A stretch of 64,000 bases of DNA from Nitrososphaerota archaeon (GTDB taxonomy: Archaea > Thermoproteota > Nitrososphaeria > Nitrososphaerales > JACQRY01), in contig JACPCU010000020.1 of NCBI GenBank assembly GCA_016184315.1, positions 21,025 through 85,024 on the forward strand, read 5' to 3'. Every line of letters begins with the position of its first letter. Position 1 is the stretch's first letter. Below the pieces are notes generated by a model. That model was not told the origin of the DNA and made no database searches. It saw nothing but the letters and a program-made list of their open reading frames with translations. Shown here piece after piece: positions 498-28,327 of this stretch. Both the position numbers and the translations under genes were made by a program.

Positions 498-1481
498 ATG
501 AGTGTAAATCTTGAAAAACTTGACGGACATGGGTTTGAGGACCTAATTGAGAAACTCCTGATTAGGATGGGGTTCAAAACTGAGGGTAGGAAACCCACAG
601 CAGACGGAGGGATAGACATTGTTGCTATATCTGAAGAACCAATATTGAAGGGACGATACATTATCCAGTGCAAGAAGTGGCAGAGCCCAGTTTCTGTTCC
701 AGTCATCAGAGATCTCTACGGGGTGGTCAATGCTGAGAATGCTAACAAAGGAGTGTTGATAACAACCTCTAACTTTACTGCTGACGCTATCGAGTTTGCA
801 CGTGACAAGCCCATAGAGCTGATCGACGGTGCAAGATTAGACGAGCTCATTAGACAACACAGCTTATCCGAAACCACTCTAGGAGACAAGGCCATATCAT
901 CGAGACAGGCAGCTGCGGAATCATTGAGAGTAGAACTTTCAGGTCTTTCAGACCGATATAGAAGAAGAATCAATGAGGTAGAAAACAGCCTCAACGTCTT
1001 GCATTCAAAGGGGTTCGGCAGTGAATCGGAAAAGAGAACATACACAGCATACCGAAAGTTTACGCTTGAAGTAATGGAACGGATAGAAAATCGCTTCGTA
1101 GCCGTCTGTAAAAGTACAATAGACAATATGAAAAGTTCGTTAGAAGCTTCTGGGACGGCTAGACAATTAGGAAAACATCTGCAAGAATTAGCCGAATATG
1201 CTTTTGAAACATGGGAAAATATCAGACGTACTAATCCTCCCTCAGAATTTGCTAGATCACACAAAATATTGGAAGGCATTGCAGCACAAATACTGGAGAG
1301 TTTTCTAGATTTCCTGCACCAAGTCGAAGAATCTCTCAGCGACTACCTAACAGAAAAAGGAAAGATTGACCACTCAGTTACACTCAAACTCCACATTCCA
1401 CAATCCGAATGGGACGAGCTTGTGAGTAGTTGGAAAGATGCATACAGTCTAGTTTACAAAAGATTACGAATCACTTTTTAA
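498..1481 (+). CDS. Mrr-cat (PD-(D/E)xK) restriction-endonuclease-domain protein with an unknown helical C-terminal domain
   Basis: The N-terminal ~120 aa carry classic Mrr catalytic-domain motifs: GHGFEDLIEKLL..MGF, DGGIDIVA, YIIQCKKW, GVLITTSNFT. Residues ~125-327 are helical with no motif I recognise. Confidence 0.75.
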   Translation: MSVNLEKLDGHGFEDLIEKLLIRMGFKTEGRKPTADGGIDIVAISEEPILKGRYIIQCKKWQSPVSVPVIRDLYGVVNAENANKGVLITTSNFTADAIEFARDKPIELIDGARLDELIRQHSLSETTLGDKAISSRQAAAESLRVELSGLSDRYRRRINEVENSLNVLHSKGFGSESEKRTYTAYRKFTLEVMERIENRFVAVCKSTIDNMKSSLEASGTARQLGKHLQELAEYAFETWENIRRTNPPSEFARSHKILEGIAAQILESFLDFLHQVEESLSDYLTEKGKIDHSVTLKLHIPQSEWDELVSSWKDAYSLVYKRLRITF

Positions 1482-1503: not shown

Positions 1504-2496
1504 TCAAGTTATGATCAGAGACTTGACATCTAGCTCCTCAAGAACCTTCAGGTTAGCTTGATCGTAGATTTTCTTCAGTCTCTCAGGAGAATAATCAGAA
1601 TAATGACTAGCCAAGATCGATCTAGGGACTCTGCCACAGAAAAAATCAATCCACCTATCAGCCACACCTAGATCACTCATTTCATTACAGAACCATTCTC
1701 TAAGCATCTGAGCATTGATCTTTACACCAGACTTCTTACTGACACGGCTGAAAGCTCTCTGAGCTCCTCTTATCGAATAGCCAAATAATGTCTTATAGAC
1801 TCCTAACACATTAGTTATTTCTACACGAGCCTCTCGGTTGAAGAAAGCAATAGAAGAATTTCTCTTAGTCTCTCCCCTATGAATATCATTAGACAGCCTA
1901 ACCATATTTCTACTCGGATCAAGTTGATCCGAAGTTATTGAAAGGGCTTCACCTAATCTAAGTCCAGAGGAACTTAAGAATAGGAAAAGTGCCTTGAAAT
2001 GCACTGTATCAACATGCTCGTAAAATCGTTTCAATTCCTGCTTTGACGGGACAATAATCATCTTAGGAGCTGGTCTCACAAGCTTAAAGGACGATACTAG
2101 GTGAGGTGATCTAAGATAGTCTCTGAAAAAGACTCTAAACGACTTAATGTAATTACTCTTAGAAGCTGGTCTATCTTTGTATCCACTAAGAAATGCTCTT
2201 AGATCTTCATTGTTAATCTTTAAGAGAGGTTTATTTATGATCTTGATGAACCTGTTTATCCTCCATAAATGGTGCTCTTTAATGGTGCTCGGTGCTAGTC
2301 CTAAATCAACTTCTAGGTATCGTCTGAAGCCTTCTAGAACATCATCAACATTACTACTTTCCGTAATAGCATTACCAGAAACCGTAACCAGATATGTTAA
2401 AGTCCTAGCATCATAGGGCACACTCTCAAGTAAAAGGGGCTGTCGTCTAGTTTGGTCCAGGATTCCAGCCTCGGGAGCTGGCGACCGTGGGTTCAA
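1504..2496 (-). CDS. tyrosine recombinase / integrase (archaeal integrative-element type)
   Basis: SAM-like N-domain (VLEGFRRYLEVDLGLAPSTIKEH..) and a catalytic domain with Arg (SGLRLGEAL), LREWF box and C-terminal Tyr (ASHYSDY). The ORF runs antisense through 61 nt of tRNA-Pro. An in-frame GTG at 2423 is an alternative start. Confidence 0.85.
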   Translation of the reverse strand: MNPRSPAPEAGILDQTRRQPLLLESVPYDARTLTYLVTVSGNAITESSNVDDVLEGFRRYLEVDLGLAPSTIKEHHLWRINRFIKIINKPLLKINNEDLRAFLSGYKDRPASKSNYIKSFRVFFRDYLRSPHLVSSFKLVRPAPKMIIVPSKQELKRFYEHVDTVHFKALFLFLSSSGLRLGEALSITSDQLDPSRNMVRLSNDIHRGETKRNSSIAFFNREARVEITNVLGVYKTLFGYSIRGAQRAFSRVSKKSGVKINAQMLREWFCNEMSDLGVADRWIDFFCGRVPRSILASHYSDYSPERLKKIYDQANLKVLEELDVKSLIIT

Positions 2497-2511
2497 ATCC
2501 CACCAGCCCCA
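2436..2511 (+). tRNA. tRNA-Pro (anticodon CGG)
   Basis: Cloverleaf read by hand. Acceptor GGGGCTG/CAGCCCC, anticodon stem CCAGC/GCTGG with loop CTCGGGA (anticodon CGG), T-arm GTGGG-TTCAAAT-CCCAC, discriminator A. No encoded CCA. Confidence 0.9.
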
Positions 2512-2554
2512 CTCCGAATCTCTTGTTCCTGCCTGACGCGACCTAACAACTTAT

Positions 2555-2752
2555 TTGATCATGACCAGTACTGAAGCCAAGTTACGCAGGATCGAAGAAA
2601 AATTGGAAGGGCTGGAGGAAACTATCGAAGTCTTGGCAGAACCTAAGTTACTCCGCGGAATAAAGCGGGCGTTAGACGACATTGCTGAGGGTAGATACCG
2701 AGACTACGATGACGTCGAGCAATTTAGAGCTACGTTCGAATCCAAGGTATGA
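2555..2752 (+). CDS. type II antitoxin (RelB/Phd-like) paired with RelE
   Basis: 65-aa acidic helical protein. ATGA stop/start overlap with the downstream RelE-family toxin. Confidence 0.6.
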   Translation: MIMTSTEAKLRRIEEKLEGLEETIEVLAEPKLLRGIKRALDDIAEGRYRDYDDVEQFRATFESKV

Positions 2753-3006
2753 AGTATCGTCTCAGAGTTCCGAACACCTTTGAGCGCGAGTTAAGAAGAC
2801 TCGGTCAGCAAGATAAGGATAGAGTCTGGAAGACTATAGGAGAGATTCAAGAATCTCCGTATTCGTACAAGTTCCTAACAGGACAGCTCACCGGCACTAA
2901 ATCTGCCAGAGTTGGAAATATCAGGATAATATTTGCAATCGACGAGCATGCGAAACGAATATTACTGCTTCACATAGGTTATAGAGGAAAAGTATACGAA
3001 CATTGA
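2749..3006 (+). CDS. relE: RelE/ParE-family mRNA interferase toxin
   Basis: 85 aa with the archaeal RelE pattern: ..ESPYSYKFLTGQLTGTKSARVGNIRIIFAIDEHAKRILLLHIGYRGKVY. Confidence 0.8.
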   Translation: MKYRLRVPNTFERELRRLGQQDKDRVWKTIGEIQESPYSYKFLTGQLTGTKSARVGNIRIIFAIDEHAKRILLLHIGYRGKVYEH

Positions 3007-3237
3007 AGGCTGATATCTGACTTGAGACAATTCTTTGGGCTAGAGTTTTCAAATCTTACCACACCCATTCCTTAAGATAGGTTGCTAGGTGTATAGAATG
3101 ATCGACCTATGGACAGTTGACTTACCATTCTGTAGGCATCATAAGCCAACGCAAAGACAATGAATACAAAAGTCCAAGACCACGTAAAAAGAACACAAGA
3201 GGATGTCGAAGAGATGAACGCCTTGAGTGACAAGTGA

Positions 3238-3411
3238 TCAACGAACTGTCCACGGCTTGAGTAATATGCATCTTGCGGGTGTCATTCCTCTGCCTTCGAC
3301 GACTATCTCTGTTGCCCTGTGACCATCTGTGTAGGAAACAACTCTTTCAGAAACTTTCTTCCTACAGTAGCACACTATCTTTTCACCAATGATCTCCTGA
3401 CGCTCAGTCAA
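3238..3411 (-). CDS. hypothetical small protein (57 aa, not in the ORF track)
   Basis: TTG start preceded by a strong SD (GGGAGGAAG, ~8 nt spacer). Overlaps by TTGA the stop of a possible 43-aa upstream ORF (3408-3539). No homology recognised. Confidence 0.3.
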   Translation of the reverse strand: MTERQEIIGEKIVCYCRKKVSERVVSYTDGHRATEIVVEGRGMTPARCILLKPWTVR

Positions 3412-3637
3412 TGTTTACTTCCTCCCATTAATGGGACTTCGTATGTTGCTTCCGCTGCTTTACCCTTCTTGCGAAGCCGCTCCAAAGCTTCCAGCACCTC
3501 TAATACTGATATCCAGTACCCATCTGCGCCGTTGCTCACATTAGGTAGGCATCGCTACCACTCTGCCCGTGTAAGACTGCTCAGTAGACTGCGGCGTTAT
3601 CGATCAATTTATAGAAGACCAAGAAACAAGGAAAACC

Positions 3638-3826
3638 ATGCCAGTAGTTCAAGTTGAAATGTGGACGGGGAGAACCGACGGAGAGAAGGAGAAATTGATG
3701 AAGGGCATATCAAAAGCCTTCGAAGAAATCGGAGTGAAGCCGGAAAGACTGACGATAATCATCCATGAAAACCCGAAGAGCAACTGGGGCACGGGAGGAC
3801 AGCCAGCGTCGAAGACGAGTCACTAA
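3638..3826 (+). CDS. 4-oxalocrotonate tautomerase family protein
   Basis: 62 aa starting Met-Pro (catalytic Pro1). MPVVQVEMWTGRT..EKEKLMKGISKAFEE..G.KPE...IIIHE matches the tautomerase family pattern. Confidence 0.8.
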   Translation: MPVVQVEMWTGRTDGEKEKLMKGISKAFEEIGVKPERLTIIIHENPKSNWGTGGQPASKTSH

Positions 3827-4034
3827 CAACCTCGTCCCATCGCAAAACAAAAATGTATTCTGCCACTTCGGCAGGAAAACAGACTTAACGTGGGAACTCG
3901 AAAGCTACGGCTTTTCTACGTCTTCATGGTAATGCTTCTCGCCGTTTTCCCAAATGGAACATATTGCCCTTATGGGCAAAAGCATCTATTGACAATACGC
4001 GGTCAAGTGAGGCAGATAGAATTAAGCCGACATA

Positions 4035-4058
4035 GGTTCAAATCCCAACGGGCCCACT
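4035..4058 (+). repeat. orphan tRNA-Pro-like 3' fragment (T-loop to discriminator), putative att remnant
   Basis: GGTTCAAATCCCAACGGGCCCACT matches tRNA-Pro 2490-2513 at 21/24 positions. No matching 5' acceptor strand (GGGCCCG) within 200 nt upstream, and the 5' T-stem does not pair. Confidence 0.5.
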
Positions 4059-4375: not shown

Positions 4376-4768
4376 TTGCTTGTCGATACCACCTTCATAA
4401 TCGACATTATGCTTAACGATAAAGCTGCAATTAGAAAAGCGCAAGAGCTGGCTGACACATCCACCCCTCTAATTGTTGGAGCCCCAACCATATTCGAACT
4501 GTATGTCGGAGTCGGATTAAGCGTGAAGTCCCAAGAGGAGAAAGTAAAGATTCTTGATGTACTAAAATCGCTTACTCACCTGCCTCTAGACAACCAGTCA
4601 GCGTCAAGAGCCGGACTTATCTACGCTGAAAGAACCAGACAAGCTAGAAAGATCGATACCGAAGACGCAATGCTGGCAGGCATTGCCATTGAAAATCACC
4701 AGCCATTGCTCACTAGAAACATAAAGGATTTCGCCGGAATATCCGAGCTAAGAGTCGAAAGCTACTAG
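4376..4768 (+). CDS. vapC: PIN-domain ribonuclease toxin VapC
   Basis: 130 aa. N-terminal LVDTTFIID (first acidic PIN residue), later conserved acidic residues (DTEDAMLAGIA), C-terminal LLTRNIKDF. Confidence 0.85.
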   Translation: MLVDTTFIIDIMLNDKAAIRKAQELADTSTPLIVGAPTIFELYVGVGLSVKSQEEKVKILDVLKSLTHLPLDNQSASRAGLIYAERTRQARKIDTEDAMLAGIAIENHQPLLTRNIKDFAGISELRVESY

Positions 4769-5397: not shown

Positions 5398-5660
5398 AGG
5401 AATTAGGACTTTCGGAAATGGCAGTCTCTTGTGGATGCCCCCCGTAAAAACCTCAATCACGCATTTCTCGACGGCGTTTCTTCTCTTTGCAAAAGACGCA
5501 AAATGACCTGAGTCTTTCCGATCACAATAGAGAGATAAGCAGATATCATACAGCTCAATGCGCAGAATTACCCGTTGTTATAAGTAAATGCAAACAGCCC
5601 TTGTTTTAAGTTTGTAGCATGACTTAGCTTAAATAGTTTAGACAATATTTCACCGGCGTC

Positions 5661-7727
5661 ATGCAGCCCTCCTCCAAACGCGTCAAGGGCATCTTCTCCG
5701 TCATCGCGTCTCCCAACCGCCTTGAGATACTCCGAATCCTGAACACCCGCGGACCCCTAAGCTACTCAGACCTGAAAATGATGGCAGGATTCAAATCAAA
5801 AAAAGAGTCAGGAAAATTTGCCTACCATCTACGCAAACTCGTCAGAGTAGCACTCGTCTCACTCAACAGATCTGAAAGAAAATACATAGTCACCAACCTA
5901 GGAAGATTGGTGCTCAACCAAGCTAGGCAGCTCGAAGAGCAATCGATGCTGGAGAGCGGACGCCTCTACGTGCGCACATCCAGACAAATGATGGAGGAGT
6001 TCAACGCAGACCGCATCCTCCAATCCCTTGTAAGAGAATCAGGCATGCCCATGGACCTAGCTCAAAGAATAACCAGCGAAGCAGAGCAACGCCTACACAA
6101 ATTCCAAACAAACTATCTGACAGGCCCACTAATACGCGAACTAGTCAACGCCCTCCTAATAGAACAGGGCCTTGAAGAATACCGCCACAAACTCACCAGA
6201 CTAGGTCTGCCCGTCTACGATGTAACCCAACTGGTAGACAAAGCCGGGGAATCAGGACAAGGAGTAGGCGCGTTGATCGAGACCACTGCAAGAGCAGTAC
6301 TATCAGAATACTTGCTTCTTGCTCGCCTACCGAAAGACGTCGCGGACGCCCATCTGAACGGCGATATTCACATAGCCAGAGCAGGAGTTTGGGGACTCAA
6401 GCCTGACAACATCTTCGTAGACGCTGCAACTTTGGCTGACTTCTCTTTGAAGGGCAGGGTTCTGCAGGCTCCCCGATTGAAGCCGGCTGAAGACTTGGAT
6501 GGCGCGTTGAGCCATTTCGCAAACGCGTCACTTCTGATTTCAAGGGAGGCTGCCGTTGAAGCATGCTTCGAAGGACTAGCGCCCTACTTGGCCAAGTACT
6601 CGAACGGATCCGGAGAAGACCTGCGTAGAAGTCTCAGGCGGACCCTGTTTGAAATGGGTGTGGCTGCCAGCAGGCATGGTGACGACGGCTTCATCACCCT
6701 TGTAGCCAAAAACAGCGGCGAAGAAGATGAACGTAGAATAGTCGATGTTCTCATAGGTGCATACGGAGACTACGTTGAAGCCACTCCAAACCCAATGATC
6801 AAACTGGTCTACCACGACGTAGACGGAGGAAGCAAACAACAGCTACCCGAGGGCCTTGTAAACCTGGTAGCTCAGGGAGTGGACATAGCTGTCTGCAGAG
6901 GCCCCCGAGCCCGATCATACATCGGCCTAGCCAAGAACATTCTGCCAGCAGAGATCTCCTCAGGCTTCTCCTCTGTGCACTCATTGTCCGTTAATCTACC
7001 GAGACTCTCCTACGAATCCAGCAAAGATGACACCTACTTCAAAGCCAAGTTGGCGATGCAGCTCAACATAGCCGTCCAAGCATTAGACAACAGGAGAAGG
7101 ATGATGAACGAGTCAACCAAAAAAGGACTCCTCCCAACACTATCATCCAACCCCAGCATCGTCACCATGGAAACAATGCCTCTGTTCGTCAACCTGATCG
7201 GCCTGGACGACGCCTTGGCTCAGCTAGCCGGAGACAAAGCAACAGGCTCCACAAGAAACAAGATGGTTGAAGGAATAGTTCAAACAGCCCTGAAAGTCTC
7301 GGCTGACAGAGGCCTAAAGATAGGCGAAACCATCGGCGTATCTATTCTCGAAGACGACTCCGCGTCAAGGTTCGCAGCAATAGACGCTGACCGCTACGGC
7401 AAACTAGGAAGCGGCCCCACAGGAGGAAAACACTACAGCCACGGCGCCGTACTCTCTTCAGAAGATCTGGATGACGCGGAAACAGTGGAACGAGTCAGCA
7501 TGCTTTCAACCAAGCTGAACGGAGGCTTCCACGCCTCCTTCACACCTGACAAAGGCGAAGCCCTTGCTGAACTGATGGCCAAGGCGAACAAACATCTGTC
7601 CTATTACCGCGTTCAGCCCAAACAATCTATCTGCAAGAACTGCGGCGCAAAGATGATCGGATATGTCGGCAGATGCAGAAATTGCAGATCAATGAGCCTA
7701 ATCCATGCCCCAATGCCCGAAAATTGA
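5661..7727 (+). CDS. wHTH (ArsR-like) + ATP-cone + class III RNR (NrdD)-like domain protein lacking the glycyl-radical C-terminus
   Basis: aa 10-95 form a winged helix (NRLEILRILNTRGPLSYSDL..FAYHLRKL). aa ~100-190 form an ATP-cone (RLYVRTSRQMMEEFNADRILQSL..). The core carries AHLNGDIHIARAG (compare the NrdD GxIHIHD box). C-terminal CxxC..CxxC ribbon, then the protein ends 11 aa later. Confidence 0.7.
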   Translation: MQPSSKRVKGIFSVIASPNRLEILRILNTRGPLSYSDLKMMAGFKSKKESGKFAYHLRKLVRVALVSLNRSERKYIVTNLGRLVLNQARQLEEQSMLESGRLYVRTSRQMMEEFNADRILQSLVRESGMPMDLAQRITSEAEQRLHKFQTNYLTGPLIRELVNALLIEQGLEEYRHKLTRLGLPVYDVTQLVDKAGESGQGVGALIETTARAVLSEYLLLARLPKDVADAHLNGDIHIARAGVWGLKPDNIFVDAATLADFSLKGRVLQAPRLKPAEDLDGALSHFANASLLISREAAVEACFEGLAPYLAKYSNGSGEDLRRSLRRTLFEMGVAASRHGDDGFITLVAKNSGEEDERRIVDVLIGAYGDYVEATPNPMIKLVYHDVDGGSKQQLPEGLVNLVAQGVDIAVCRGPRARSYIGLAKNILPAEISSGFSSVHSLSVNLPRLSYESSKDDTYFKAKLAMQLNIAVQALDNRRRMMNESTKKGLLPTLSSNPSIVTMETMPLFVNLIGLDDALAQLAGDKATGSTRNKMVEGIVQTALKVSADRGLKIGETIGVSILEDDSASRFAAIDADRYGKLGSGPTGGKHYSHGAVLSSEDLDDAETVERVSMLSTKLNGGFHASFTPDKGEALAELMAKANKHLSYYRVQPKQSICKNCGAKMIGYVGRCRNCRSMSLIHAPMPEN

Positions 7728-10800: not shown

Positions 10801-11056
10801 CTTCAGGTGGATGGCCATGAAGTTCCTCCCGAAGGAATCTCTGGTTGAAGTCGGGCTCAACGCCAACGAATCCCATAACGGCAACGGGGAGGAGCTGGCT
10901 AAGCCCGAGGCAGCTGGATCGGAGAGGTCTTTGGATTCTAGGAGATTCGACGTCAGGTCTGATGCTCCTGCATGCAAGGACTGCGGCTCACTGATGATGC
11001 GGAGCGGAGCCTGCTACCTGTGCACCGTGTGCGGAAGCACCAGCGGATGCTCCTAA
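7877..11056 (+). CDS. nrdJ: adenosylcobalamin-dependent (class II) ribonucleotide reductase
   Basis: 1059 aa. Contains HACFIQPIKDDL, FKYGSGSGTNFSTLRAKGE, GGTTRRAAKM, SNPCSEYMFLDNTACNLASINL and a C-terminal CxxC..CxxC tail. Confidence 0.95.
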   Translation: MSTEGYRSETKSELLGDQGLKIQRQFTKQGENIYDMFDWEKRPSVIRNPDGSIVFEMPDVEVPRFWNQTATDVLAQKYLRKRGVPQLDKDGKPVLDANGNPVLGSETSLKQIVHRLAGCWTHWGKKYGYFASDADAQAFYDEIAYMLTNQMAAPNSPQWFNTGLNWAYDITGPAQGHYFVDPDAKQLTASKDAYSHPQVHACFIQPIKDDLVNEGGIMDLWVREARIFKYGSGSGTNFSTLRAKGETLSGGGISSGVMTFLKIGDQTGGAIKSGGTTRRAAKMVILNIDHPEIEDFITWKVNEEKKFAALVHAGLAPSTMEAAGDHVFGQHSNNSVRVTDEFMKAVLTDGQWNLTWRSGGVAKTVKAADLWNKIAESAWACADPGLQYDTTINDWHTCPSSGRINASNPCSEYMFLDNTACNLASINLTKFFDPATKMFDVQAFTHAVRLWTIVLELSVLLAQYPSKEIAQRSYETRTLGLGFTNLGSMLMIAGIPYDSDRARAICGALSAIMTGEAYATSAEIASFLGPFPDYQKNREHMLEAIRNHRRAAYNARPEEYDGLHTIPVGLDQKNCPQYIVISAMDAWDRALALGEKYGYRNAQATLIAPTGTISFVMGADTTGIEPDYALVKVKKLFGGGYFKIINKSVMAALKNLGYSEEQIDDIIKHVIGANSLKDAPHINDVTLKVKGFSEEDIRKMEDALPTVFDVQQAFTVHVLGKETLERLGFTSPQYNSPSFNLLKSMGFPETEIEKANEYVCGTQTVEGAPHLKKEHYPVFDCANKCGPKGRRFIDYMAHVRMMAAAQPFLSGSISKTINMPNEATVTDVQRVYLEGWRLGLKSLAVYRDGSKMVQPLTTGVEEKEESKVVYKAVRRRLPDERTSITHKFKIGNQEGYLTVGLYEDGKPGELFITMSKQGSTLSGLMDAFATSVSIALQYGVPLEVLVNKFIHTRFEPSGWTNNPQIRSAKSITDYIFRWMAMKFLPKESLVEVGLNANESHNGNGEELAKPEAAGSERSLDSRRFDVRSDAPACKDCGSLMMRSGACYLCTVCGSTSGCS

Positions 11057-11072
11057 GACAACCATTTAACCA

Positions 11073-12074
11073 CTAGGATCGGAAGTCAATATCTTCGTTG
11101 AGGATCAGGGCTATCAACGCAGCTCTCAGAGTCTTCCCGTAGTGGGCTTGCTGGAAGTATCTTGCCTGTGGAGCCGAGTCTACTTCAGCCTTGATTTCCC
11201 CTGCTCTTGGCAAGGGGTGCATGACGATCAGACTGTCCTTAGCTTTGTCGAGGGTTGACCGGTCAACCACGTAGATTCCCCTGACCTTCTCGTATTCCTG
11301 GGGGTCGGGGAAGCGTTCCCTCTGAATCCGGGTCATATACAGTACATCTGCGGCGCTGATAACCTCCTCCATGGAGCGGTGCTGGCTGATCTTCATCCTG
11401 TTCTCCAAGTCGTAGAGGGCCTCCTCTCTGATCCTTAGTTGCGGAGGTGAAACTAGGAAGACCTGGGGCTCAAACCTAGCCAATGCGTACAGGAGGGAGT
11501 AGACTGTGCGTCCGTACTTCAGGTCTCCTACTATCGCTATGTTGAGGCCGTCTATCTTGCCCTTCTCCTTCATGACGGTGTAGAGGTCTAGCATGGCTTG
11601 GGTGGGATGCTCCTCGGTTCCGCTTCCAGCGTTGATCACGGGCTTGGAGGCTACTTCGGCTGCGAAGCGGGCTGCGCCATCGCTGGGGTGTCGTAGGATG
11701 ATTATGTCTGAGTATCCTTCAAGTATCTTCACTGTGTCGGCTAGGCTTTCGCCTTTCTCGACGGAGACTGAGTGGGGATCCGCGAAGCCTATGGATGATC
11801 CTCCTATGGAGAGCATCGCAGCCTCGAAGCTGAAGATGGTTCGGGTGCTGGGCTCGTAGAAGAGCATAGAGAGGACTCTGCCTTCACCGATCTTCTGTTT
11901 TTTGGAAAGGGGTAGGCTGCTGATACGGTCTGTGGCTTCGAAGAGGCCTTCGAAGTCGTATCTGTCGAGGTCCTTTATGGATACTATGTCTCTGTTGTAG
12001 AAACGGTTTTTCAAGAGTCTGCATGACTGTGCCGCGGGTCGGCTTAAAAGCTTGGCGACTAGGAGCTCAAACAA
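11073..12074 (-). CDS. pyrB: aspartate carbamoyltransferase catalytic subunit
   Basis: Contains FYEPSTRTIFSFE, HPTQAMLD and HPLPR. The true start is probably the in-frame TTG at 12014 (MKNRFYNRDIVSIKDL). Confidence 0.95.
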   Translation of the reverse strand: MFELLVAKLLSRPAAQSCRLLKNRFYNRDIVSIKDLDRYDFEGLFEATDRISSLPLSKKQKIGEGRVLSMLFYEPSTRTIFSFEAAMLSIGGSSIGFADPHSVSVEKGESLADTVKILEGYSDIIILRHPSDGAARFAAEVASKPVINAGSGTEEHPTQAMLDLYTVMKEKGKIDGLNIAIVGDLKYGRTVYSLLYALARFEPQVFLVSPPQLRIREEALYDLENRMKISQHRSMEEVISAADVLYMTRIQRERFPDPQEYEKVRGIYVVDRSTLDKAKDSLIVMHPLPRAGEIKAEVDSAPQARYFQQAHYGKTLRAALIALILNEDIDFRS

Positions 12075-12077
12075 CGT

Positions 12078-12596
12078 ATGCTGGCCGGATCGGCGAAGGC
12101 TTATAGCGCCATATTATTTGATCATATGTCGATGTCGCAAGAGGAGCTTCTCGTCAGAAGAATCAAAGAGGGCACCGTCCTAGACCACGTTGAGGCAGGC
12201 AGAGCCCTTAGAGTCTTGACTGCTTTGGGCATCAAAGGAGAGGACGGCAACATAGTAACAGTAGCTATGAATGTTTTGAGCAGTAAGATGGGCAAGAAGG
12301 ATATTGTTAAGATCGCTGACAGGTTTCTGAGCCAAGAAGAGTCAGATCGGATTGCTCTGATCGCTCCTAGGGCTACTGTCAACCTAATACGGGACTACCG
12401 GGTCGTCGAGAAGCGCGTCGTCCACCTGCCAAAAACGTTCGTCAACATTTTCCGCTGCCCTAATCCCACCTGTATCTCTAATTCACCTGAACCTATTGTT
12501 CCTGAGCTCCAAGTTCTAAGGGCGGATCCGCCTACGTTAAAATGCAAGTACTGCGCAAGGCTGCTGTACCCCGTCGATGTCCTCTCAAACCAGTGA
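12078..12596 (+). CDS. pyrI: aspartate carbamoyltransferase regulatory subunit
   Basis: Contains LLVRRIKEGTVLDHV, KDIVKI and a zinc domain (CPNPTCISN..CKYC). The likely true start is the ATG at 12126. Confidence 0.95.
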   Translation: MLAGSAKAYSAILFDHMSMSQEELLVRRIKEGTVLDHVEAGRALRVLTALGIKGEDGNIVTVAMNVLSSKMGKKDIVKIADRFLSQEESDRIALIAPRATVNLIRDYRVVEKRVVHLPKTFVNIFRCPNPTCISNSPEPIVPELQVLRADPPTLKCKYCARLLYPVDVLSNQ

Positions 12597-12852
12597 AACG
12601 CCGCCTGAGGATAAGCGAAGAAACATCAAGAAAAGGGTCAACCTTCTCATAGCTGGTCTACCGTTCCTAATAGCTTCCCTTACTCTAGGCGGCACTCTTG
12701 CAGGACTCTATTTGCAGAACATCTTGAAGCGGGCGGACTTTATCATACCGATAGTAACTTCACTACTAGGATTAGGCGTCTCCATATACCTGTCCTGCAT
12801 AGTGGCGAATAGAGTAACCTCTAAACCAGTAAAAGAATCAAGAAAACGGTAA
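12577..12852 (+). CDS. small membrane protein (2 predicted TM helices)
   Basis: 91 aa with two hydrophobic stretches (LLIAGLPFLIASLTLGGTLAGLYL; IIPIVTSLLGLGVSIYLSCIV). Confidence 0.45.
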   Translation: MSSQTSETPPEDKRRNIKKRVNLLIAGLPFLIASLTLGGTLAGLYLQNILKRADFIIPIVTSLLGLGVSIYLSCIVANRVTSKPVKESRKR

Positions 12853-12881
12853 GAAAATAGAAAGGGGGGAGGCGCCCACTT

Positions 12882-13214
12882 TTACGCGGCGCTACCCAAG
12901 ATCAGGATTGCGATGACAATACCGTAGATCGCGAGTGCTTCACCGAGGGCGGTGATGATGATCGCAGTAGTCCTGATTTCAGGGCGTTCTGCTGTTCCTG
13001 CTAGGCCCGCAGAACCTGCTCTTCCAATGGCTAATCCTGCTGCAATCGCAGATAGACCGAAGGCTATGGCTGCGCCGATGAACTTGTTGGATGCTGGATC
13101 TGCTGGAAAGAACCCAGCATAAGACTGGGGTGTTTGCGCCAGAGCTGGGAGAAACGGCAGAGATGATACGAGCAACGATAGTCCGTAGAGAATGTACCTT
13201 ACAAGAGTTCTCAT
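12882..13214 (-). CDS. atpK: A-type ATP synthase proteolipid subunit K (c)
   Basis: Gly/Ala-rich hairpin AIAFGLSAIAAGLAIGRAGSAG..ITALGEALAIYGIVIAILIL with the ion-binding Glu. Has an N-terminal hydrophobic extension. Confidence 0.9.
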   Translation of the reverse strand: MRTLVRYILYGLSLLVSSLPFLPALAQTPQSYAGFFPADPASNKFIGAAIAFGLSAIAAGLAIGRAGSAGLAGTAERPEIRTTAIIITALGEALAIYGIVIAILILGSAA

Positions 13215-13240
13215 GAGGCATCCTCAAAGTTTAAGGATAT

Positions 13241-13307
13241 TTGAGTTTTTCGGAGTGTGGAACCAAGTTTCCGATCTTACGAAAGGCTCCGCACTTCCTC
13301 AGACCTA
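13241..13307. repeat. 67-bp direct repeat, copy A (upstream of atpK)
   Basis: 62/67 identical to 14192-14258 by hand alignment. Contains an internal 10-bp stem (GTGTGGAACC / GGCTCCGCAC). Confidence 0.9.
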
Positions 13308-13579
13308 GTCTTACGCGGAAACTACAGCTGCTGATGTCTTGACATAGAGCCATGATACTATTGCGTCATAGCATGAACACCAGTGATTCGATCCCAGTTG
13401 AACAAACCCTTTAGACCATCAACAACACACATGGGGGACAAAGAAGATTAGGCATTTTCCGAAAAAGGGGGACGAGGCTCAGTTCAGCTACCACCGGGAG
13501 ACAAGTTGCAGCCCTAAAAGGGGCCATGGCATGGATTCAGTTCTCCAAAGGAACAAACGCTTGCTAGCTGCCAGCAACG

Positions 13580-13909
13580 TTAGACTCTGAATAGTTCTCT
13601 TGTCCGACGATTGACCTCCCCTTTAAGGATCGGTCCGAGTTCACCGATCTCCCCTAGAATGAGGCTCTTCAGCACAGTTGCAACCTTGTCCAGCTTTACT
13701 ACAGAAGGCACCTTAAGTCCAGTCAGCCCGTACTCAGGGTGACTCTGTTCTATGATAACATCATGACGGGCAGGTTTCTCGGGCATCTTGGAAGAAATGA
13801 ACGCAACGATAACATCTGCTCTTCCCTCGTATATCACAAGGGCAGGCCGAAGCTTCGTTGAAGTCAGATCTGTGAAGGGAAACGGTATGAGAACAAGTTT
13901 TCCCTTCAT
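13580..13909 (-). CDS. mazF: PemK/MazF-family toxin
   Basis: 109 aa. N-terminus GKLVLIPFPFTDLTSTKLRPALVI is the MazF/PemK signature. Confidence 0.85.
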   Translation of the reverse strand: MKGKLVLIPFPFTDLTSTKLRPALVIYEGRADVIVAFISSKMPEKPARHDVIIEQSHPEYGLTGLKVPSVVKLDKVATVLKSLILGEIGELGPILKGEVNRRTRELFRV

Positions 13910-14097
13910 CGGTACTTAACCTTCAAATCCTTCTCCGAATACAAGACAGGCTCGTCCGTGAAGAACCTCTTGAGGGAGGGTTCACTAGCTTTCATTGTCA
14001 GGAATGGCTCCAGCTCATCCACCATCAGATCAACCTTCTTCTTTAGGTCGTTAAGCTCTCGCTTCATCTTCTTTATCTCCACCTCTACTGTGCCCAT
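13906..14097 (-). CDS. putative antitoxin of MazF
   Basis: 63-aa charged coiled-coil protein. 4-nt overlap with the mazF start. Confidence 0.55.
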   Translation of the reverse strand: MGTVEVEIKKMKRELNDLKKKVDLMVDELEPFLTMKASEPSLKRFFTDEPVLYSEKDLKVKYR

Positions 14098-14191
14098 CTC
14101 TACAGATGAGGTAGTCTTTCGTTAATATAAGTTATCTTCTTGAGACCAACGGGTTGCGATGCTGACAACGATCCAAAAGACATTACGCAAG

Positions 14192-14258
14192 TTGAGTTTT
14201 TCGGAGTGCGGAACCAAGTTTCCGATCTTACGAAAAGCTTCGCACTGCCTCAGACTTA
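14192..14258. repeat. 67-bp direct repeat, copy B (covers the 3' end of the small ORF downstream of atpD)
   Basis: See copy A. Overlaps the last 10 sense codons plus the stop of ORF 14228-14368. Confidence 0.9.
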
Positions 14259-14368
14259 CCTTTTTCCAGCCGTTCGCTTACCATCTTCTCGTACTCCGCG
14301 TACTTGGCCTTAAGACTGCTCTTGGCCTGCTCAAACTTCTTGTTTACAACATCTTCAGCTTTGCTCAT
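14228..14368 (-). CDS. small (46 aa) helical protein translationally coupled to atpD; candidate small ATPase subunit (crenarchaeal epsilon-like)
   Basis: Not in the ORF track. Its ATG overlaps the atpD stop (ATGA). Sequence MSKAEDVVNKKFEQAKSSLKAKYAEYEKMVSERLEKGKSEAVRSFS. Its position between atpD and the proteolipid gene matches the small subunit gene in Sulfolobus-type operons. Confidence 0.5.
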   Translation of the reverse strand: MSKAEDVVNKKFEQAKSSLKAKYAEYEKMVSERLEKGKSEAVRSFS

Positions 14369-15009
14369 CTAACACCACTCTTGCTTTCCAACACAGCTTT
14401 GACATGTTTAAGCCTAGCGAAATCCTCTCTCTCCCTCTCCTCAAGGGTTGCTCGGATATACTTAGCTGAATCCTCGTAGGTCGGAATAACAACATACTCC
14501 AAGGCGTTGATAAGCCTCTGAGTCTTCTCCAATTCCTTAGCCAAACTGAAGATGGCGTTCTCCACCTCAGCAGCCTTACATATGCTCGGCAGCACCCTCC
14601 TCATCATCCTAGTAGCATCGTCGAGAGTCGCATTGGTGCCTCCGAACCCGTAGGTTAACCCCATCTCTTTCGTCTTAACTGTCAAAGTAGGCACCTTCAC
14701 ATCAATCATGTTCTTAACATCCACTGCCACATCAACCTGGCTGGGAGTCGTGAAAGCCACTGATTCAAGAGTCATGGGCCCAAGAGTCAAGTAGGCATCA
14801 AGAAGAGACCTGTAAGCATCGGAGAGCGGTTGCCACATGGAGTCCCTAGACTCAGAGGCCTCCTGAATCAGTTCTTCTAGCCGCTTAAGCAGCACTTGAC
14901 GCTTGTCCTCAAGTATTTTGTGGACCATCACTGCTACTTGGAGGCTACGCTTGATCCGGATCAGCTCTATCTTTGTGGGTAGGGGTCTCTTGCTTGACGC
15001 TACTGACAC
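14365..15009 (-). CDS. atpD: A-type ATP synthase subunit D
   Basis: N-terminus PTKIELIRIKRSLQVAVMVHKILEDKRQVLL and overall coiled-coil layout typical of A/V subunit D. Confidence 0.93.
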   Translation of the reverse strand: MSVASSKRPLPTKIELIRIKRSLQVAVMVHKILEDKRQVLLKRLEELIQEASESRDSMWQPLSDAYRSLLDAYLTLGPMTLESVAFTTPSQVDVAVDVKNMIDVKVPTLTVKTKEMGLTYGFGGTNATLDDATRMMRRVLPSICKAAEVENAIFSLAKELEKTQRLINALEYVVIPTYEDSAKYIRATLEEREREDFARLKHVKAVLESKSGVR

Positions 15010-15011
15010 GG

Positions 15012-16427
15012 CTACGATGACCCTCCGCTGCCCCCTGAACTAGGCTTACTGTACTTGTGGATGTATTCTTCCCTGATTTTGGTCAACTCGTTTTCAGGCA
15101 GAACTGAAAGGATGTCCCACGCAATGCTCAAAGTGTCCTCGAGGGTGCGGTTCTCCTCATAACCTTGGTTCAGGAATTGCCGCTCAAACCTTTCGCCGAA
15201 GTCAAGGTATTTCAGGTCTGTTCCTGTCAAACCGCTTTTGCCCACAATTTCTGCAAGTGCTCTAAGCTCCTGAGACCTAGCGAAACCGGCGTAAAGCTGG
15301 TTGCTGACCTCCATGTGGTCGTCCCTCGTCTTGCCTTTGCCGACTCCGTCCTTCATCAGCCTGCTCAGGCTGGAAAGCACGTTTACTGGCGGATAGACCT
15401 CTTTTCGGAACAGGTCCCGTCCAAGAACGATCTGCCCCTCGGTGATGTAACCTGTCAAGTCGGGGATGGGGTGAGTGATGTCGTCGCTGGGCATGGATAG
15501 AATGGGCATCTGGGTGATGCTTCCCTTCTCTCCTTTGATCCTGCCTGCTCTCTCGTAGATGCTAGCAAGATCTGTATAGAGGTATCCTGGGTAACCTTTT
15601 CTTCCAGGCACCTCTTCGCGAGCAGCGCTGATCTCTCTGAGGGCCTCCGCGTAGTTGGTCAGATCAGTGATTATGACGAGAACATGCATGCCCAGCTCGA
15701 AGGCCAAGTATTCTGCCGCTGTGAGAGCAACCCTAGGAGTGGTGATTCTCTCGATGGCAGGGTCGTCTGCAAGGTTGAGGAAGAGGGCGCTTCTCTTTAT
15801 GGCACCGGTCTCTTCAAGGGCTCTGCGGAAGAACCTAGACTCCGTGTGCTGGACACCCACCGCGGCGAAGACCACGGCGAACTCCGCCTGCTCTCCTAGC
15901 ACAGTTGCCTGTCTCGCAACTTGGGCTGCCAGCAGGTTATGTGGCATGCCTGCACCTGAGAAGATGGGTAGCTTCTGGCCTCTGACCAGAGTGTTCATTC
16001 CGTCGATGACGGATACTCCAGTCTGAATGAAGTCAGTAGGATAGTCCCTTCTCTCCGGGTTAATTGGAAGACCGTTAACGTCACGGAAGTCCTCGCCCAC
16101 AGGCTCAGGGAGATTGTCCAGGGGCCTGCCTAGGCCGTCGAAGACCCTTCCGAGCAGCTCAGAGGAGACAGCTATCTCCATGGGTTTACCTAGGAACCTT
16201 GCCTTGGTTCCTATTGTGGAGAGCCCTGTGGTTCCCTCGAAGACCTGTACTACTGCTCTTCCTCCACCTATTTCGAGGACTTTGCCAAGTCTCTGCTCTC
16301 CCCCGGGGGACTCTATCTCTACTAGCTCGTCGTATGCTGCTTGGGTCACCCCATCTAAGATCAGCAGGGGGCCTTTAATCTCAGCGACCTTCGTGTACTC
16401 TATTCCGCCGACCTGTTTAGCTGGCAA
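15012..16427 (-). CDS. atpB: A-type ATP synthase subunit B
   Basis: 471 aa. Contains [34 protein letters not shown] and [21 protein letters not shown]. Confidence 0.97.
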
Positions 16428-18204
16428 CCACTTTCACCTCTTGTGCAGACATCTTCCTAAACCCTTCAACCATATCTTTGCCCAGTTCTTCAAGAAGCTC
16501 TAGCTTCTCGTTAGGCACCGCGAACTTGCTTCTAATCAGCTTCGCGATTATGGGCATCGCCCTGATTTGGGACAATGCGACGCCGCTCTTCAGAGCGTTC
16601 ATCGCCTCGCGATGGAAGTCTGCGTAGAGTGACAGGAGTTTGTACTGCTTCTGGGGACTGCAGTAACTGTCAACCTCGTCGTAGGCGCTCTGCTGAAGGA
16701 AGCCTTCTTTGATCATTCTTGCAACATCAAGGATCAGCTTCTCCTCATCAGGAAGAGCCTCGGGTCCGAGGAGCCTGACGATCTCCTTCAACACGTCTTC
16801 TCGCTGAAGGATGGTGTAGACGTAGCCTCTTTCGCGGTCCCAGTTCTTGCCCACTGTGTCGCCCCACCATTTCTTCACGCTGTCAGCGTAGCCTGAGTAG
16901 CTTGTGATCCAGTTGATAGCCGGATAATGCCTAGAATAAGCGAGCCTTGTTTCTAGACCCCAGAAGGTCTTGATGAATCGTGAGGTATGAGTTGTGACGG
17001 GCTCGGTGAAGTCTGCGCCTGACGGTGAAACCGCTCCGATGAGGGTTACGGAGCCTATGCGCTCCGGCGTGCCTAGTGTTCTGACTCTTCCTGCCCGTTC
17101 ATAAAACTCGGCGAGACGTGAAGCTAAGTAAGATGGGTATCCTTCCTCCGCTGGCATCTCTTCTAATCGTCCACTGATCTCTCTGAGAGCCTCAGCCCAT
17201 CTGCTCGTCGAATCAGCTACGAGCACAACGTCATAACCCATGTCTCTGTAATATTCAGCCATGGTTACCCCGGTGTAAATGCTGGCTTCCCTTGCTGCTA
17301 CAGGCATGTTGCTTGTGTTAGCCACGAGGATGGTTCGGTCCATCAGGGGTAGTCCGGAAGCAGGGTCTTTCAACTCGGGGAACTTGATTAGCACTTCGGT
17401 CATTTCGTTGCCGCGTTCACCGCAGCCCACGTGCAATACGACTTTCGCATCAGCCCAAGCCGCGATTTGGTGGAGGGTAACTGTCTTTCCGGTGCCGAAG
17501 CCTCCTGGAATAGCTGCTGTTCCTCCCTTAACAATGGGGAACAGAGTATCTATAACCCTCTGTCCTGTGACTAGAGGAAGCTCAGGGTCAAACCGCTCAG
17601 CGTAAGGACGAGCCTTCCTGACGGGCCAGCGGTGATACATCTTTAGGTCCTGTTTCTTGCTGTCCTTCTTGACTGTGGCAATCACTTCTTCAACGGTGTA
17701 GTCTCCCTCATCCCTGATCTCTACAACTTCTCCTCCAGGTGAATCTGGAGGCACCATAATCCTATGCTCGATCAGGGGTGTCTCGTTCACGGTTCCAAGA
17801 ATGCTGCCTGCCTGAACAACATCCTTCTTTTTGACTGTGGGTTTGAAGTGCCACTTAGCGTCATAGGAGATAGAGGGCATTGAGATGCCTCTGGTGATGA
17901 AGGCTCCTGACTTCTTCGCAATCTCGTCTAGGGGCCTCTGCATCCCGTCGTAGATCTTGCCGATCATGCCGGGTCCTAGGGACACAGATAATGGTAGACC
18001 AGTACCATAGACGGGTTCACCAGGCTTCAATCCGCTGGTGGACTCGTAGACTTGGACGAACGCCACGTCGCCAGTCAGACGGATAATTTCGCCCACAAGG
18101 CGCTCCTCGCCTACCTCAACAGTCTCATACATCTTGGCCTCCCCCATACCCGAAGCCTTGACGGCAGGGCCACTGATCCAAACTATCTTGCCTTTAGCTG
18201 GCAT
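16417..18204 (-). CDS. atpA: A-type ATP synthase catalytic subunit A
   Basis: 595 aa. Walker [10 protein letters not shown], then [11 protein letters not shown] and [18 protein letters not shown]. Confidence 0.97.
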
Positions 18205-18208
18205 AAAC

Positions 18209-18835
18209 CTAACTTCCTCCGCTCAGCAGGTCGTATACCTGCCTCCTTAAAAGCGGCTTGATTCTTGCAAGCCTAGCCTCAACAGTGTTGTCATACACGA
18301 TGCTACCATCAGTTGACCTGACTTTCACGCCGCCTGCGCAGTTCAGCGGCTGGGGATCCATCTCTATCTTCACTCCCTTACGCTTGCCCACTTCCGATGC
18401 GAGCTTAGAGACGGTTTTCAGGTCCCTCTTGCTACAGGAGCACACCACTTCCTTGACATCGAGTGAGATGATGCTTTCCTCAAGGATACGCTTCAAGGCG
18501 TCATCATAAGAACCCTCGAATTCTAGGCGAGCTATCTTATCCAGAGACTGATGGAAGACCTTGTTGACTGTTTCCTCGGTGAGCTGAAGGCTCTTGTTTC
18601 TTGCCACCAGCTCCGCGTTACCGATGAGTCTGCGTTTAACAGCGTCAGCCTGCCTGTCCTTCGACTCCAAGATCTTAGTGACCGCTTCAACAGCCTCGCG
18701 CCTAGCTGCTTCAAGGATGCTCTCTGCCTCCTTGACGCCTTCGCCTAGAATAGCGATCATCTCCTGCCGTGCTTCGTCGGAGACCTTGTTGACAACGTTT
18801 CTCACAGATGAGCTTGCAGCCATAATTCTAAACAC
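18209..18835 (-). CDS. atpE: A-type ATP synthase subunit E
   Basis: 208 aa. N-terminal coiled coil and C-terminal [22 protein letters not shown] motif. Confidence 0.85.
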
Positions 18836-19130
18836 CCAATATTTGTCTCAGCATCGTCCTGTATTCTATCTTGACAGCCTTAGTCCCAGGCGCAGGAACC
18901 TCGTAGATGAGGGGAACCGGCTTCTTAGATCTCAGCTCTGTCAAACGGGGTCTAAGAGGCTCCGCGACATCACTGCTCACCATGATCAAACCAGTATTCT
19001 TGTCAGCCATCAGGCCTTCAACCGTCTTCAAAGCTTCATCAGGAGTCGTAGCTTCGACACCGTCAACTCCGGCAAGACGGAAACCAGAAACGAAGCTCCT
19101 AGTACCGACTGCGATGACTCGCATCGACAA
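18828..19130 (-). CDS. atpF: A-type ATP synthase subunit F
   Basis: 100 aa. Contains RVIAVGTRSFVSGFRLAGVDGVE. Confidence 0.9.
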   Translation of the reverse strand: MSMRVIAVGTRSFVSGFRLAGVDGVEATTPDEALKTVEGLMADKNTGLIMVSSDVAEPLRPRLTELRSKKPVPLIYEVPAPGTKAVKIEYRTMLRQILGV

Positions 19131-27087: not shown

Positions 27088-28023
27088 CTACTCTGCTTTG
27101 TGCATTACCCATTCTGCCAGGCCATAATCTACACATAGCTTGGCTACCTCTCTGGGACCGAGATATCTGATTTCTTCGGTCTCAGCTCCACTCTCCATTG
27201 AATAATTTTCTAGGCTATCCTCGGGTGTATGAACCGCGAAGAAGAAGCGAGCATAACCTGCCATTTCAGCAAAGCGATCCTTGTAATCTAAATAGTCTTG
27301 CCGTCCTGCCTTCGATTTAACCTGAACGGAGATCTTTTCATTTGTCACAGGCGAGAGCAGCTCGAGGTCTATCGTTTTCTGTGGCCCGCCCAGCTTGCCG
27401 ATGCGTTTCCAACCAGCACCCCTGAAGATGAGATCAACAAGGAGCTCGAAATCCTTCCAATGAAGGCCTCGAATCAAACTTTCAATATTATCGACTAGAG
27501 TTTTGTATGCTGCCTGAGCCTCTTCGATGCGAGGTGGTGTCTTCCCGTTGATTTTATTGACCAGGTACTCAAATTCCTTGACTTTACAAATAGTGCCCCT
27601 GTAGCCCTGCATGCTTAACAGGCTCCCTCGCAATCTGTCCGTCGACAGTTTGTTATCTTTGACATCGGTGCTTCGCCATTGGTCGATGACTTTCCTGAAC
27701 CTACTACCGTCGCCAAGCTTAGTTACCTCGGGGTTCGAGAAGCACCACCGAAGAGAATTCCCGTGGAAGGTTACCCACAGCACGTCAGTGCCCGCCTCGT
27801 AAAATTCTTTGATCTGATTCAGATCTCGCCTGATAGCCCCTTTGTCGTTTCTTATCTTTTGAAGTTGCTTTTCTACATGATTCCAGCGGCGGGCTACACA
27901 GTCTTCGTGTGAGATTTCATTATAGCCAAACCGTATGGTCTGATTTTCTAAGCACTCTTTTTCCCATCCACCTTCCGATCCAAGCTTTATGTAGCATGCA
28001 CGATTTGGTTTTATCTCCTGCAT
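27088..28023 (-). CDS. Mrr-cat-like PD-(D/E)xK nuclease domain protein with an unknown N-terminal domain
   Basis: The C-terminal half (HWKDFELLVDLIFRGAGW .. TIDLELL .. ISVQVKSK) parallels the Mrr catalytic motifs seen in ORF 498-1481. The N-terminal ~190 aa (ACYIKLGSEGGWEKECLENQTIRFGY..) are unassigned. Confidence 0.6.
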   Translation of the reverse strand: MQEIKPNRACYIKLGSEGGWEKECLENQTIRFGYNEISHEDCVARRWNHVEKQLQKIRNDKGAIRRDLNQIKEFYEAGTDVLWVTFHGNSLRWCFSNPEVTKLGDGSRFRKVIDQWRSTDVKDNKLSTDRLRGSLLSMQGYRGTICKVKEFEYLVNKINGKTPPRIEEAQAAYKTLVDNIESLIRGLHWKDFELLVDLIFRGAGWKRIGKLGGPQKTIDLELLSPVTNEKISVQVKSKAGRQDYLDYKDRFAEMAGYARFFFAVHTPEDSLENYSMESGAETEEIRYLGPREVAKLCVDYGLAEWVMHKAE

Positions 28024-28251
28024 ACGTGATTCAGCAGGCTCTACTACTCCTTAGCTCGGATTTAAGGCATGCTGGGGTGTGGTATACAGGTCTTTGCTAT
28101 ACTCTTCTATCCTTTTTCCCTAAAGACGGCTTGAAATTGAAGTAAAGGTAGCCCGTGACAGGTTCGGTTCCATGTTCGCAAGATCTTATAACGTCAGATA
28201 GGTGTTTTATGCCCTTTTTCTGCCTGAAATATAGCCGAAACATAGCGGAAA

Positions 28252-28327
28252 TGGTAGCCCGGGGCAGATTCGAACTGCCGTCACCGGCTCCAAAGGCCAG
28301 TATGCTTGACCGCTACACCACCGGGCT
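28252..28327 (-). tRNA. tRNA-Gln (anticodon UUG) with encoded CCA
   Basis: The reverse complement reads AGCCCGG..CTGGC-CTTTGGA-GCCGG..GGCAG-TTCGAAT-CTGCC-CCGGGCT-A-CCA. The cloverleaf was checked by hand. Confidence 0.9.

Follow-up and report, generated by a model that had tools for sequence, protein, structure and literature searches.

A MazF-family toxin-antitoxin cassette between 67-bp direct repeats in the ATPase operon of an uncultured Nitrososphaeria archaeon

We analysed a 64-kb stretch of DNA (the window) from an uncultured Nitrososphaeria (Thaumarchaeota) archaeon, in which a small toxin-antitoxin (TA) cassette lies inside the A/V-ATPase operon, between atpD and atpK. In the direction of transcription the order is atpF, atpE, atpA, atpB, atpD, a 46-aa open reading frame (ORF), one copy of a 67-bp repeat (copy B), a 63-aa ORF, a PemK/MazF gene, 272 nt of further sequence, the other copy of the repeat (copy A), 26 nt and atpK (Table 1). 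The atpI gene is transcribed divergently relative to the operon. A first, sequence-only reading of this DNA had placed mazF, its antitoxin and a TATA-like element in 884 bp between the repeats, and these distances and gene calls hold. The part of the insert that it left unassigned is likewise unassigned here, with a length of 272 nt rather than 270 nt.

Table 1. Features of the ATPase locus and associated loci. Coordinates are those of the window unless a locus label (L) is given; strands are relative to the window.
Feature	Coordinates	Strand	Remarks
atpF	18828-19130	-	
atpE	18209-18835	-	
atpA	16417-18204	-	
atpB	15012-16427	-	
atpD (A/V-ATPase subunit D, 214 aa)	14365-15009	-	PF01813, 4.5e-56
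46-aa ORF, target gene with duplicated 3' end	14228-14368	-	overlaps atpD by 4 nt
Repeat copy B (attL-like)	14192-14258	-	authentic 3' end of the 46-aa ORF plus 36 nt of downstream spacer
Inserted segment, 884 bp	13308-14191	-	absent from relatives
TATA-like box CTTATAT	14125-14131	-	starts 34 nt before the antitoxin ATG
Putative antitoxin gene (63 aa)	13906-14097	-	overlaps mazF in ATGA
PemK/MazF-family toxin gene (109 aa)	13580-13909	-	PF02452, 2.6e-11, residues 2-106 of 109
Orphan tail of the insert, 272 nt	13308-13579	-	hairpin right after the mazF stop plus a T5 run
Repeat copy A (attR-like)	13241-13307	-	non-coding duplicate; last 14 nt are part of the conserved atpK upstream motif
Conserved atpK-proximal motif TCCGAAAAACTCAAATATCCTTAAACTTTGAGGATGCCTC	13215-13254	-	defined by comparison with L015 and L017; complete only next to copy A
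atpK (A/V-ATPase c subunit, 110 aa)	12882-13214	-	PF00137, 3.4e-17
Archaeal phage integrase ORF	1504-2496	-	PF16795; runs antisense into tRNA-Pro
Cargo at the equivalent junction of other loci	L061 2718-5393; L065 4295-4809; L073 3213-4704; L074 4289-4758; L093 2714-4199		

The two copies are ungapped direct repeats, identical at 62 of 67 positions (93%) with a start-to-start offset of 951 nt. A blastn self-comparison of the window recovers them at E = 8e-21, in agreement with the alignment made earlier from the sequence alone. The exact 26-nt core of the repeat, GGAACCAAGTTTCCGATCTTACGAAA, occurs twice in the window with up to three mismatches allowed, and not at all in 100 shuffled sequences. 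The idea that the 67-mer might be a dispersed intergenic repeat was rejected, since no copy besides 13241-13307 and 14192-14258 is present in the 64 kb. The sequence derives from a metagenome-assembled genome, where a structure of this kind could in principle arise as an assembly artefact or as a chimera of strain variants. However, ten independently assembled Logan contigs, from other runs of the same study, agree with it base for base across both junctions (100% identity over up to 2.6 kb), and the repeats are imperfect, unlike the product of a k-mer collapse. We give an artefact practically no weight, and because of these ten assemblies take the arrangement of repeats and insert to be real and fixed in the sampled population.

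In gene direction, copy B spans the nine complete codons at the end of the 46-aa ORF (KSEAVRSFS), then the TAA stop of that ORF and a further 36 nt of spacer. The stop had been placed correctly by the sequence-only reading; its count of ten sense codons had not, as only one base of the tenth lies in the repeat. Copy A has a parallel layout (RSEEVRSLS, TAA), but an in-frame TAG upstream closes the frame and a start codon is missing, so copy A is indeed the non-coding duplicate, 26 nt from the atpK ATG, that had been proposed.

Relatives of AtpD were collected from genomes, metagenomes and Logan assemblies, and the corresponding junctions were compared (loci are labelled L). Empty sites with a single copy are present in L015, L017, L011, L012 and L013; the relatives with empty sites have AtpD identities of 82% (L015), 80% (L017), 64% (L011), 54% and 51%. 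The spacer from the small ORF to atpK is 65-70 nt in L015 and L017 and 29 nt in L011, and the junction is compact in L012 and L013 too. Most of the other loci that yielded an atpK also have a single-copy empty site, and most of the additional metagenomic ones place atpK within ~150-400 nt of atpD. Aligned with L015 and L017, copy B matches from the small ORF to ...CCGAAAAACTCAA (...CTCAA) and then diverges into the insert, while copy A matches from AGGTCTGAGG through TCCGAAA(A/G)ACTCAAATAT..AAAC..GGA..ATG into atpK. Because the relatives hold one copy, and copies A and B each match one side of it, the 884 bp are an insertion with target duplication, and the earlier claim that a TA cassette was inserted at the atpD-atpK junction is borne out by the empty sites. 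Judged from these alignments, the ancestral junction is best reconstructed as small ORF, 67-mer, 26 nt and atpK, to which the 884 bp were added as the 67-mer was duplicated. The ancestral order would have been atpD, an ORF of ~46 aa, a spacer of ~62 nt and atpK, and the empty site would have read ...GAAAAAGG + one 67-mer + ATATCCTTAAAC...

A search for homologues of the MazF protein found 2040, and NCBI names the identical protein, MBI2184693.1, a PemK/MazF toxin. Around the closest homologues (83-66% identity), a homologue of the 63-aa ORF (68-44%) lies directly upstream, overlapping or abutting mazF, at every locus that shows that side, across seven genomic contexts besides that of the window. 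The neighbourhoods of the homologous pairs are unrelated to one another: BSP-family and GNAT genes, nucS, the vicinity of uvrC, SdpI/PadR, and dihydroorotate dehydrogenase. Since the pair is kept together in such different surroundings, the 63-aa ORF and MazF form a conserved module of two genes that travel together. The partner belongs to a family of 59-65 aa (L018, L020, L022, L106, L107) in which the N-terminal half is a coiled coil and the C-terminal motif EPxxYSxKDLKVxY is invariant, and it is very probably the antitoxin; searches against Pfam, NCBIfam, PADLOC and PDB profiles returned no significant match.

Outside the two genes the insert has little in common with anything else we compared it with. 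Its nucleotide similarity to other TA loci is confined to 13573-14100, which corresponds to the genes themselves. The heptamer CTTATAT is found likewise in L018 and L022, where it starts 35-36 nt upstream of the antitoxin ATG, and it is plausibly an archaeal TATA box that serves as the cassette's own promoter. No supported ORF or coding signal was detected in the 272-nt tail, whose folding z-scores against shuffled sequences were +1.9 and +0.3. The non-coding parts of the insert have no homologue in other TA loci, in the rest of the window or among PLSDB plasmids. A third, degenerate copy or footprint of the repeat was sought in the 272-nt tail and in the 94-nt head, and was rejected because local alignments were no better than those of shuffled sequences. 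The only supported ORFs in the 884 bp are the TA pair, with no integrase or integrase fragment, and the insert resembles neither the window's integrase nor any other ORF. That integrase, the nearest one, is 11 kb distant and at another site. MazF relatives in viral contigs were limited to a single match at 30% identity, and a scan with bacterial promoter and terminator models was uninformative (2 terminator-like sites vs 1.7 expected).

Members of the same TA family also lie between long direct repeats at two other kinds of site. In L018, whose MazF is 83% identical, the pair is flanked by 64-nt repeats, 81% identical to each other, that derive from the 3'-distal stretch of a GNAT coding sequence (PF00583). 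One copy is inside this convergent gene, which now reads 25 new codons into the insert, and the other still has the four codons and the stop with which the gene originally ended. Krupovic et al. illustrate a similar change of stop codon for a gene that received a thaumarchaeal element (PMC6563490). In L022, L023 and L024 (MazF 74%), the repeats are ~89 nt long, come from the 3' end of uvrC and are present in three copies (in L022, 7371-7459, which lies inside uvrC, 5657-5746 and 4424-4512), which delimit two adjacent inserts in a tandem array. The TA insert of L022 holds the TA pair, a 55-aa ORF (5480-5647, no Pfam match) and a 5' fragment of a second mazF (4513-4578). This fragment starts 1-2 nt after the repeat, and the three-copy uvrC array is also seen in L023, L024 and L025. 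The other insert contains two unknown genes, one of them for a 214-aa protein with weak CARF/CasR-like matches.

The uvrC site in L022 was used twice, which requires site specificity and points indirectly to such repeats as possible att sites. Arrays that arise when one site is used again are typical of tyrosine-recombinase elements (PMC6563490), and accretion is known for CIMEs, decayed att-flanked elements that lack integration genes (PMC5704250). The orientation of the TA pair relative to its target gene is opposite in the window and in L018, as would be expected of cargo. In 500 kb from 94 loci, all other long direct repeats reflect paralogy (atpA/atpB, sufB/sufD, UvrA) or intragenic repetition. 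The window's own repeat at 33832/35209 was set aside as sufB/sufD paralogy, irrelevant to the insert.

With moderate confidence, we favour the view that a mobile TA element entered the operon by a Campbell-type crossover and is now an integrase-less, CIME-like remnant or a minimal element. We prefer this att-like reading because the TA family recurs between long repeats at the GNAT and uvrC 3' gene ends. An element with a MazF-type TA pair would have come in at the small ORF's 3' end through a single reciprocal crossover between the ~67-bp chromosomal site and a similar, non-identical copy on the element, most likely within the 26 bp over which the two copies have no mismatch. A hybrid copy would be left on each side, copy B keeping the last codons and stop of the small ORF and copy A keeping the upstream region of atpK; both neighbouring genes are intact because of this. 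The insert could be what is left of a larger integrated element that the TA pair has outlasted, or a minimal element served by an integrase in trans. The TA pair would be expressed from its own TATA box, and atpK probably from the upstream motif that it has retained. The sequence-only reading had offered a Campbell-type crossover of a small circle or an unusually long target duplication; the comparative evidence favours the Campbell type, but does not specifically indicate a free circle of 0.95 kb. The 3' end of a protein-coding gene together with downstream sequence is the target type of 14 of the 68 thaumarchaeal integrated elements described (PMC6563490).

Several points weigh against this mechanism. 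A recombinase is absent from all three inserts, those of L018 and L022 being without an integrase as well, so its involvement is purely inferred. At two more distant homologous TA loci, L106 and L107, flanking repeats are absent. No empty-site allele of the same species was found, so it cannot be told which half of a copy came from the host and which from the element. The median att length of thaumarchaeal elements is 17 bp, against 67 bp here (29-69 bp in Crenarchaeota), and the smallest thaumarchaeal cryptic element described, at 2.6 kb, is three times larger than the 884-bp insert (PMC6563490). Three independent decays to nearly nothing except a TA pair also make a demanding history, unless TA addiction explains it.

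The absence of a recombinase from every insert would suit a long target-site duplication, in which the cassette was placed in a staggered break, overhangs of ~67 nt were filled in by a transposition-like or repair process acting in trans, and the copies, identical at the outset, drifted apart later. The repeat lengths, similar across the three contexts (64, 67 and ~89 nt), are in keeping with this. With L014, a sister population, as reference, both copies contain derived states (AAG and TTT in copy B, GAA in copy A), which is compatible with divergence after duplication; yet copy B, the functional one, shows no less change than copy A, which is free of constraint, and drift would not lead one to expect this. 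Nor are there terminal inverted repeats or shared end motifs linking the inserts of the window, L018 and L022. The uvrC site of L022, used twice to give three copies, demands site specificity, and the targets are always gene 3' ends, as they are for integrases. We know of no mechanism that yields duplications of 60-90 bp, and we regard this explanation as unlikely.

The differences between the copies also bear on whether homologous recombination could have done the work without any dedicated enzyme, either with a small circle that carried the junction from a related strain or by unequal crossing-over between alleles with cassettes on opposite sides of the 67-bp segment. The copies differ at five positions. 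Copy A has the state of the relatives (L014, L015, L017) at two of them (AGG and a Leu codon), which the functional copy B does not share, as might be expected had one copy come from another lineage, and copy B has the relatives' state at one (GCA); moreover, the samples also contain the sister population, which has another TA pair at this junction. Against this, such recombination would account for the spread of the arrangement and not for its origin, and the GNAT and uvrC sites would each need a separate coincidence. A 67-bp segment with 7% mismatch would also be a poor substrate for homologous recombination, and we judge the explanation improbable. Both copies look partly derived, and the five differences by themselves do not discriminate between the models.

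It had also been suggested that the repeated segment is a structured RNA, perhaps an atpK leader, with two of the mismatches altering base pairs of an internal stem. Both copies are predicted to form a hairpin (-20.8 and -17.6 kcal/mol, z = -2.2 and -1.6), and one U-G to C-G change does lie within its stem; the G-C to G-U change is absent from the predicted fold. However, these z-scores are weak, and the remaining differences make or break pairs with no compensating change. The corresponding segments of L015 and L017 fold like shuffled sequences (z = -0.2 and -0.1), no Rfam match was obtained at E<=1 across 11000-16000, and conservation of the repeat among relatives is limited to its final 14 nt. 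That the 67-mer was kept on both sides as a structured RNA, whether a leader of atpK or a processing signal, thus seems very unlikely, and the suggestion is not supported.

What is conserved at this junction lies closer to atpK. Conservation with L015 and L017 covers the 40 nt that lead up to the atpK ATG, 14 of them inside copy A, and this motif is possibly a promoter or ribosome-binding region. The insertion had been described as splitting atpK from an essential operon. Physically it does separate atpK from atpD, but a loss of atpK expression is not implied, because the complete conserved upstream segment has been retained. Ammonia-oxidising relatives have a TATA-like CTTATAAG inside the end of the small ORF, ~45 nt before atpK; CTTATAA(G/A) in the last small-ORF codons, followed by a Shine-Dalgarno-like sequence, is seen in L026, L029, L034, L041, L055, L056 and L081. 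The arrangement points to an internal promoter for atpK within the small ORF of those relatives. An atpK-proximal promoter is therefore plausible, and would explain why the junction tolerates insertions.

The junction is a repeatedly used insertion point. In L014 (AtpD 90%), found in one of these same runs, a RelE-family gene in convergent orientation (TIGR02385, 3.7e-9) occupies 1112-1369 (minus), and its partner ORF (1379-1615, minus) starts 14 nt after the small-ORF stop (region 957-1629). The L014 contig ends before atpK and no AtpK of ~90% identity was recovered, so the far boundary of the RelE insert is outside the assembled sequence. In a more distant clade, one to five other genes sit between the small ORF and atpK in L061, L065, L073 and L093, and L074 has ~470 nt of extra non-coding sequence there; its close relatives are compact. 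No flanking repeats were found around the junction inserts of L061, L065, L073, L074 and L093. The cargo in this clade includes a zinc-ribbon protein of 66-75 aa and proteins of 141 aa and ~200 aa, and L061 has a large extra ORF. A broader proposal, which we regard as rather doubtful, is that Nitrososphaeria harbour integrase-less mini-elements made up of a TA pair and a 60-90-bp mimic of a host-gene 3' end. These would be inserted, or re-inserted, by integrases in trans and kept because the TA pair punishes loss, with the small-ORF 3' end as a recurrent landing site (MazEF here, RelE in the sister lineage).

Two other places in the window have a similar architecture at tRNA genes, which are classical att targets, and this too speaks for the att-like reading. 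The 3' end of a tRNA-Pro gene (2436-2512, +), 2490-2513, recurs at 3046-3069 (71%) and at 4035-4058 (88%). The first interval is occupied solely by a RelE/ParE-like toxin with a putative antitoxin (2555-3006), and the second contains a tautomerase gene (3638-3826). The integrase ORF runs antisense into this tRNA gene, as in SSV-type integrases, and 1504-4058 is an integration hot spot at tRNA-Pro. At a tRNA-Gln gene (28252-28327, minus strand), a 40-nt imperfect direct repeat (26831-26870/28222-28261, 83%) comprises the last 10 nt of the tRNA and 30 nt downstream, with a third partial copy at 28144-28166. These repeats bracket a single 311-aa ORF (27088-28023, minus strand) with a weak match to Mrr restriction endonucleases, and the locus is probably another stripped integrated element.

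The gene whose 3' end was duplicated is itself widely conserved. Homologues of the 46-aa ORF, 41-64 aa in length, are present 3' of atpD in 41 of the 42 Nitrososphaeria loci examined; searches of Pfam, NCBIfam, PADLOC and PDB gave no family match for it. Across ~40 loci (L011-L104) these proteins are lysine/glutamate-rich and helical, and their genes usually overlap or abut atpD. The ORF may be an unannotated small ATPase subunit or an assembly factor. On the other side of atpK, a convergent ORF for a two-helix membrane protein (70-91 aa) occurs in the window (12577-12852, +), in L011 (6163-6375) and in L061 (5747-6001). It lies between atpK and pyrI where the locus extends that far, and keeps this position across distant relatives; it has no family assignment.

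The locus is a base-resolved example of foreign DNA that has come to lie inside an essential operon without damage, the duplicated target restoring one gene's end as well as the region upstream of the gene that follows. The case suggests that TA pairs in Nitrososphaeria are the residue of decayed integrated elements, or that they travel as minimal att-flanked units, which surveys that define elements by their integrase would miss. It also draws attention to a conserved, unnamed gene of ~46 aa in the thaumarchaeal ATPase operon. The insert leaves the current understanding of TA systems and of integration unchanged; the most noteworthy part of the finding is the recurrence of TA-only inserts with long att-like repeats at the 3' ends of Nitrososphaeria genes.

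How does the insert compare with systems already known? With transposons and casposons it shares a direct target duplication on either side. Their target-site duplications are 2-15 bp long, and those elements have terminal inverted repeats and an encoded or borrowed transposase or casposase, none of which is seen here. The TA pair resembles type II MazEF/PemIK modules in its PemK/MazF toxin, in the small upstream partner that overlaps it in ATGA, in having a promoter that appears to be its own and in the joint travel of the two genes. It differs from them in the partner, which is not a MazE/AbrB, ribbon-helix-helix or other curated antitoxin but an unclassified coiled-coil protein of 59-65 aa. 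The cryptic integrated elements (CIEs) of Thaumarchaeota, described in 2019, are defined by an integrase, span 2.6-98 kb and have a median att of 17 bp (PMC6563490), in contrast to an integrase-less insert of 884 bp with repeats of 67 bp. They nonetheless share with it the host phylum, the type of target, the flanking direct repeats and TA modules as known cargo, and in CIEs, too, the target ORF either stays whole or acquires a new stop, as it does in L018 (PMC6563490). CIMEs differ in that the present case, known from sequence alone, has an archaeal host, is far smaller (0.9 kb, TA only) and has no identified partner element for mobilisation. The likeness to them lies in direct repeats that take in the target gene's 3' end, in a small cargo without integrase or transfer genes, in the tandem accretion at the homologous L022 locus and in the absence of the 884-bp insert from the same site in relatives.

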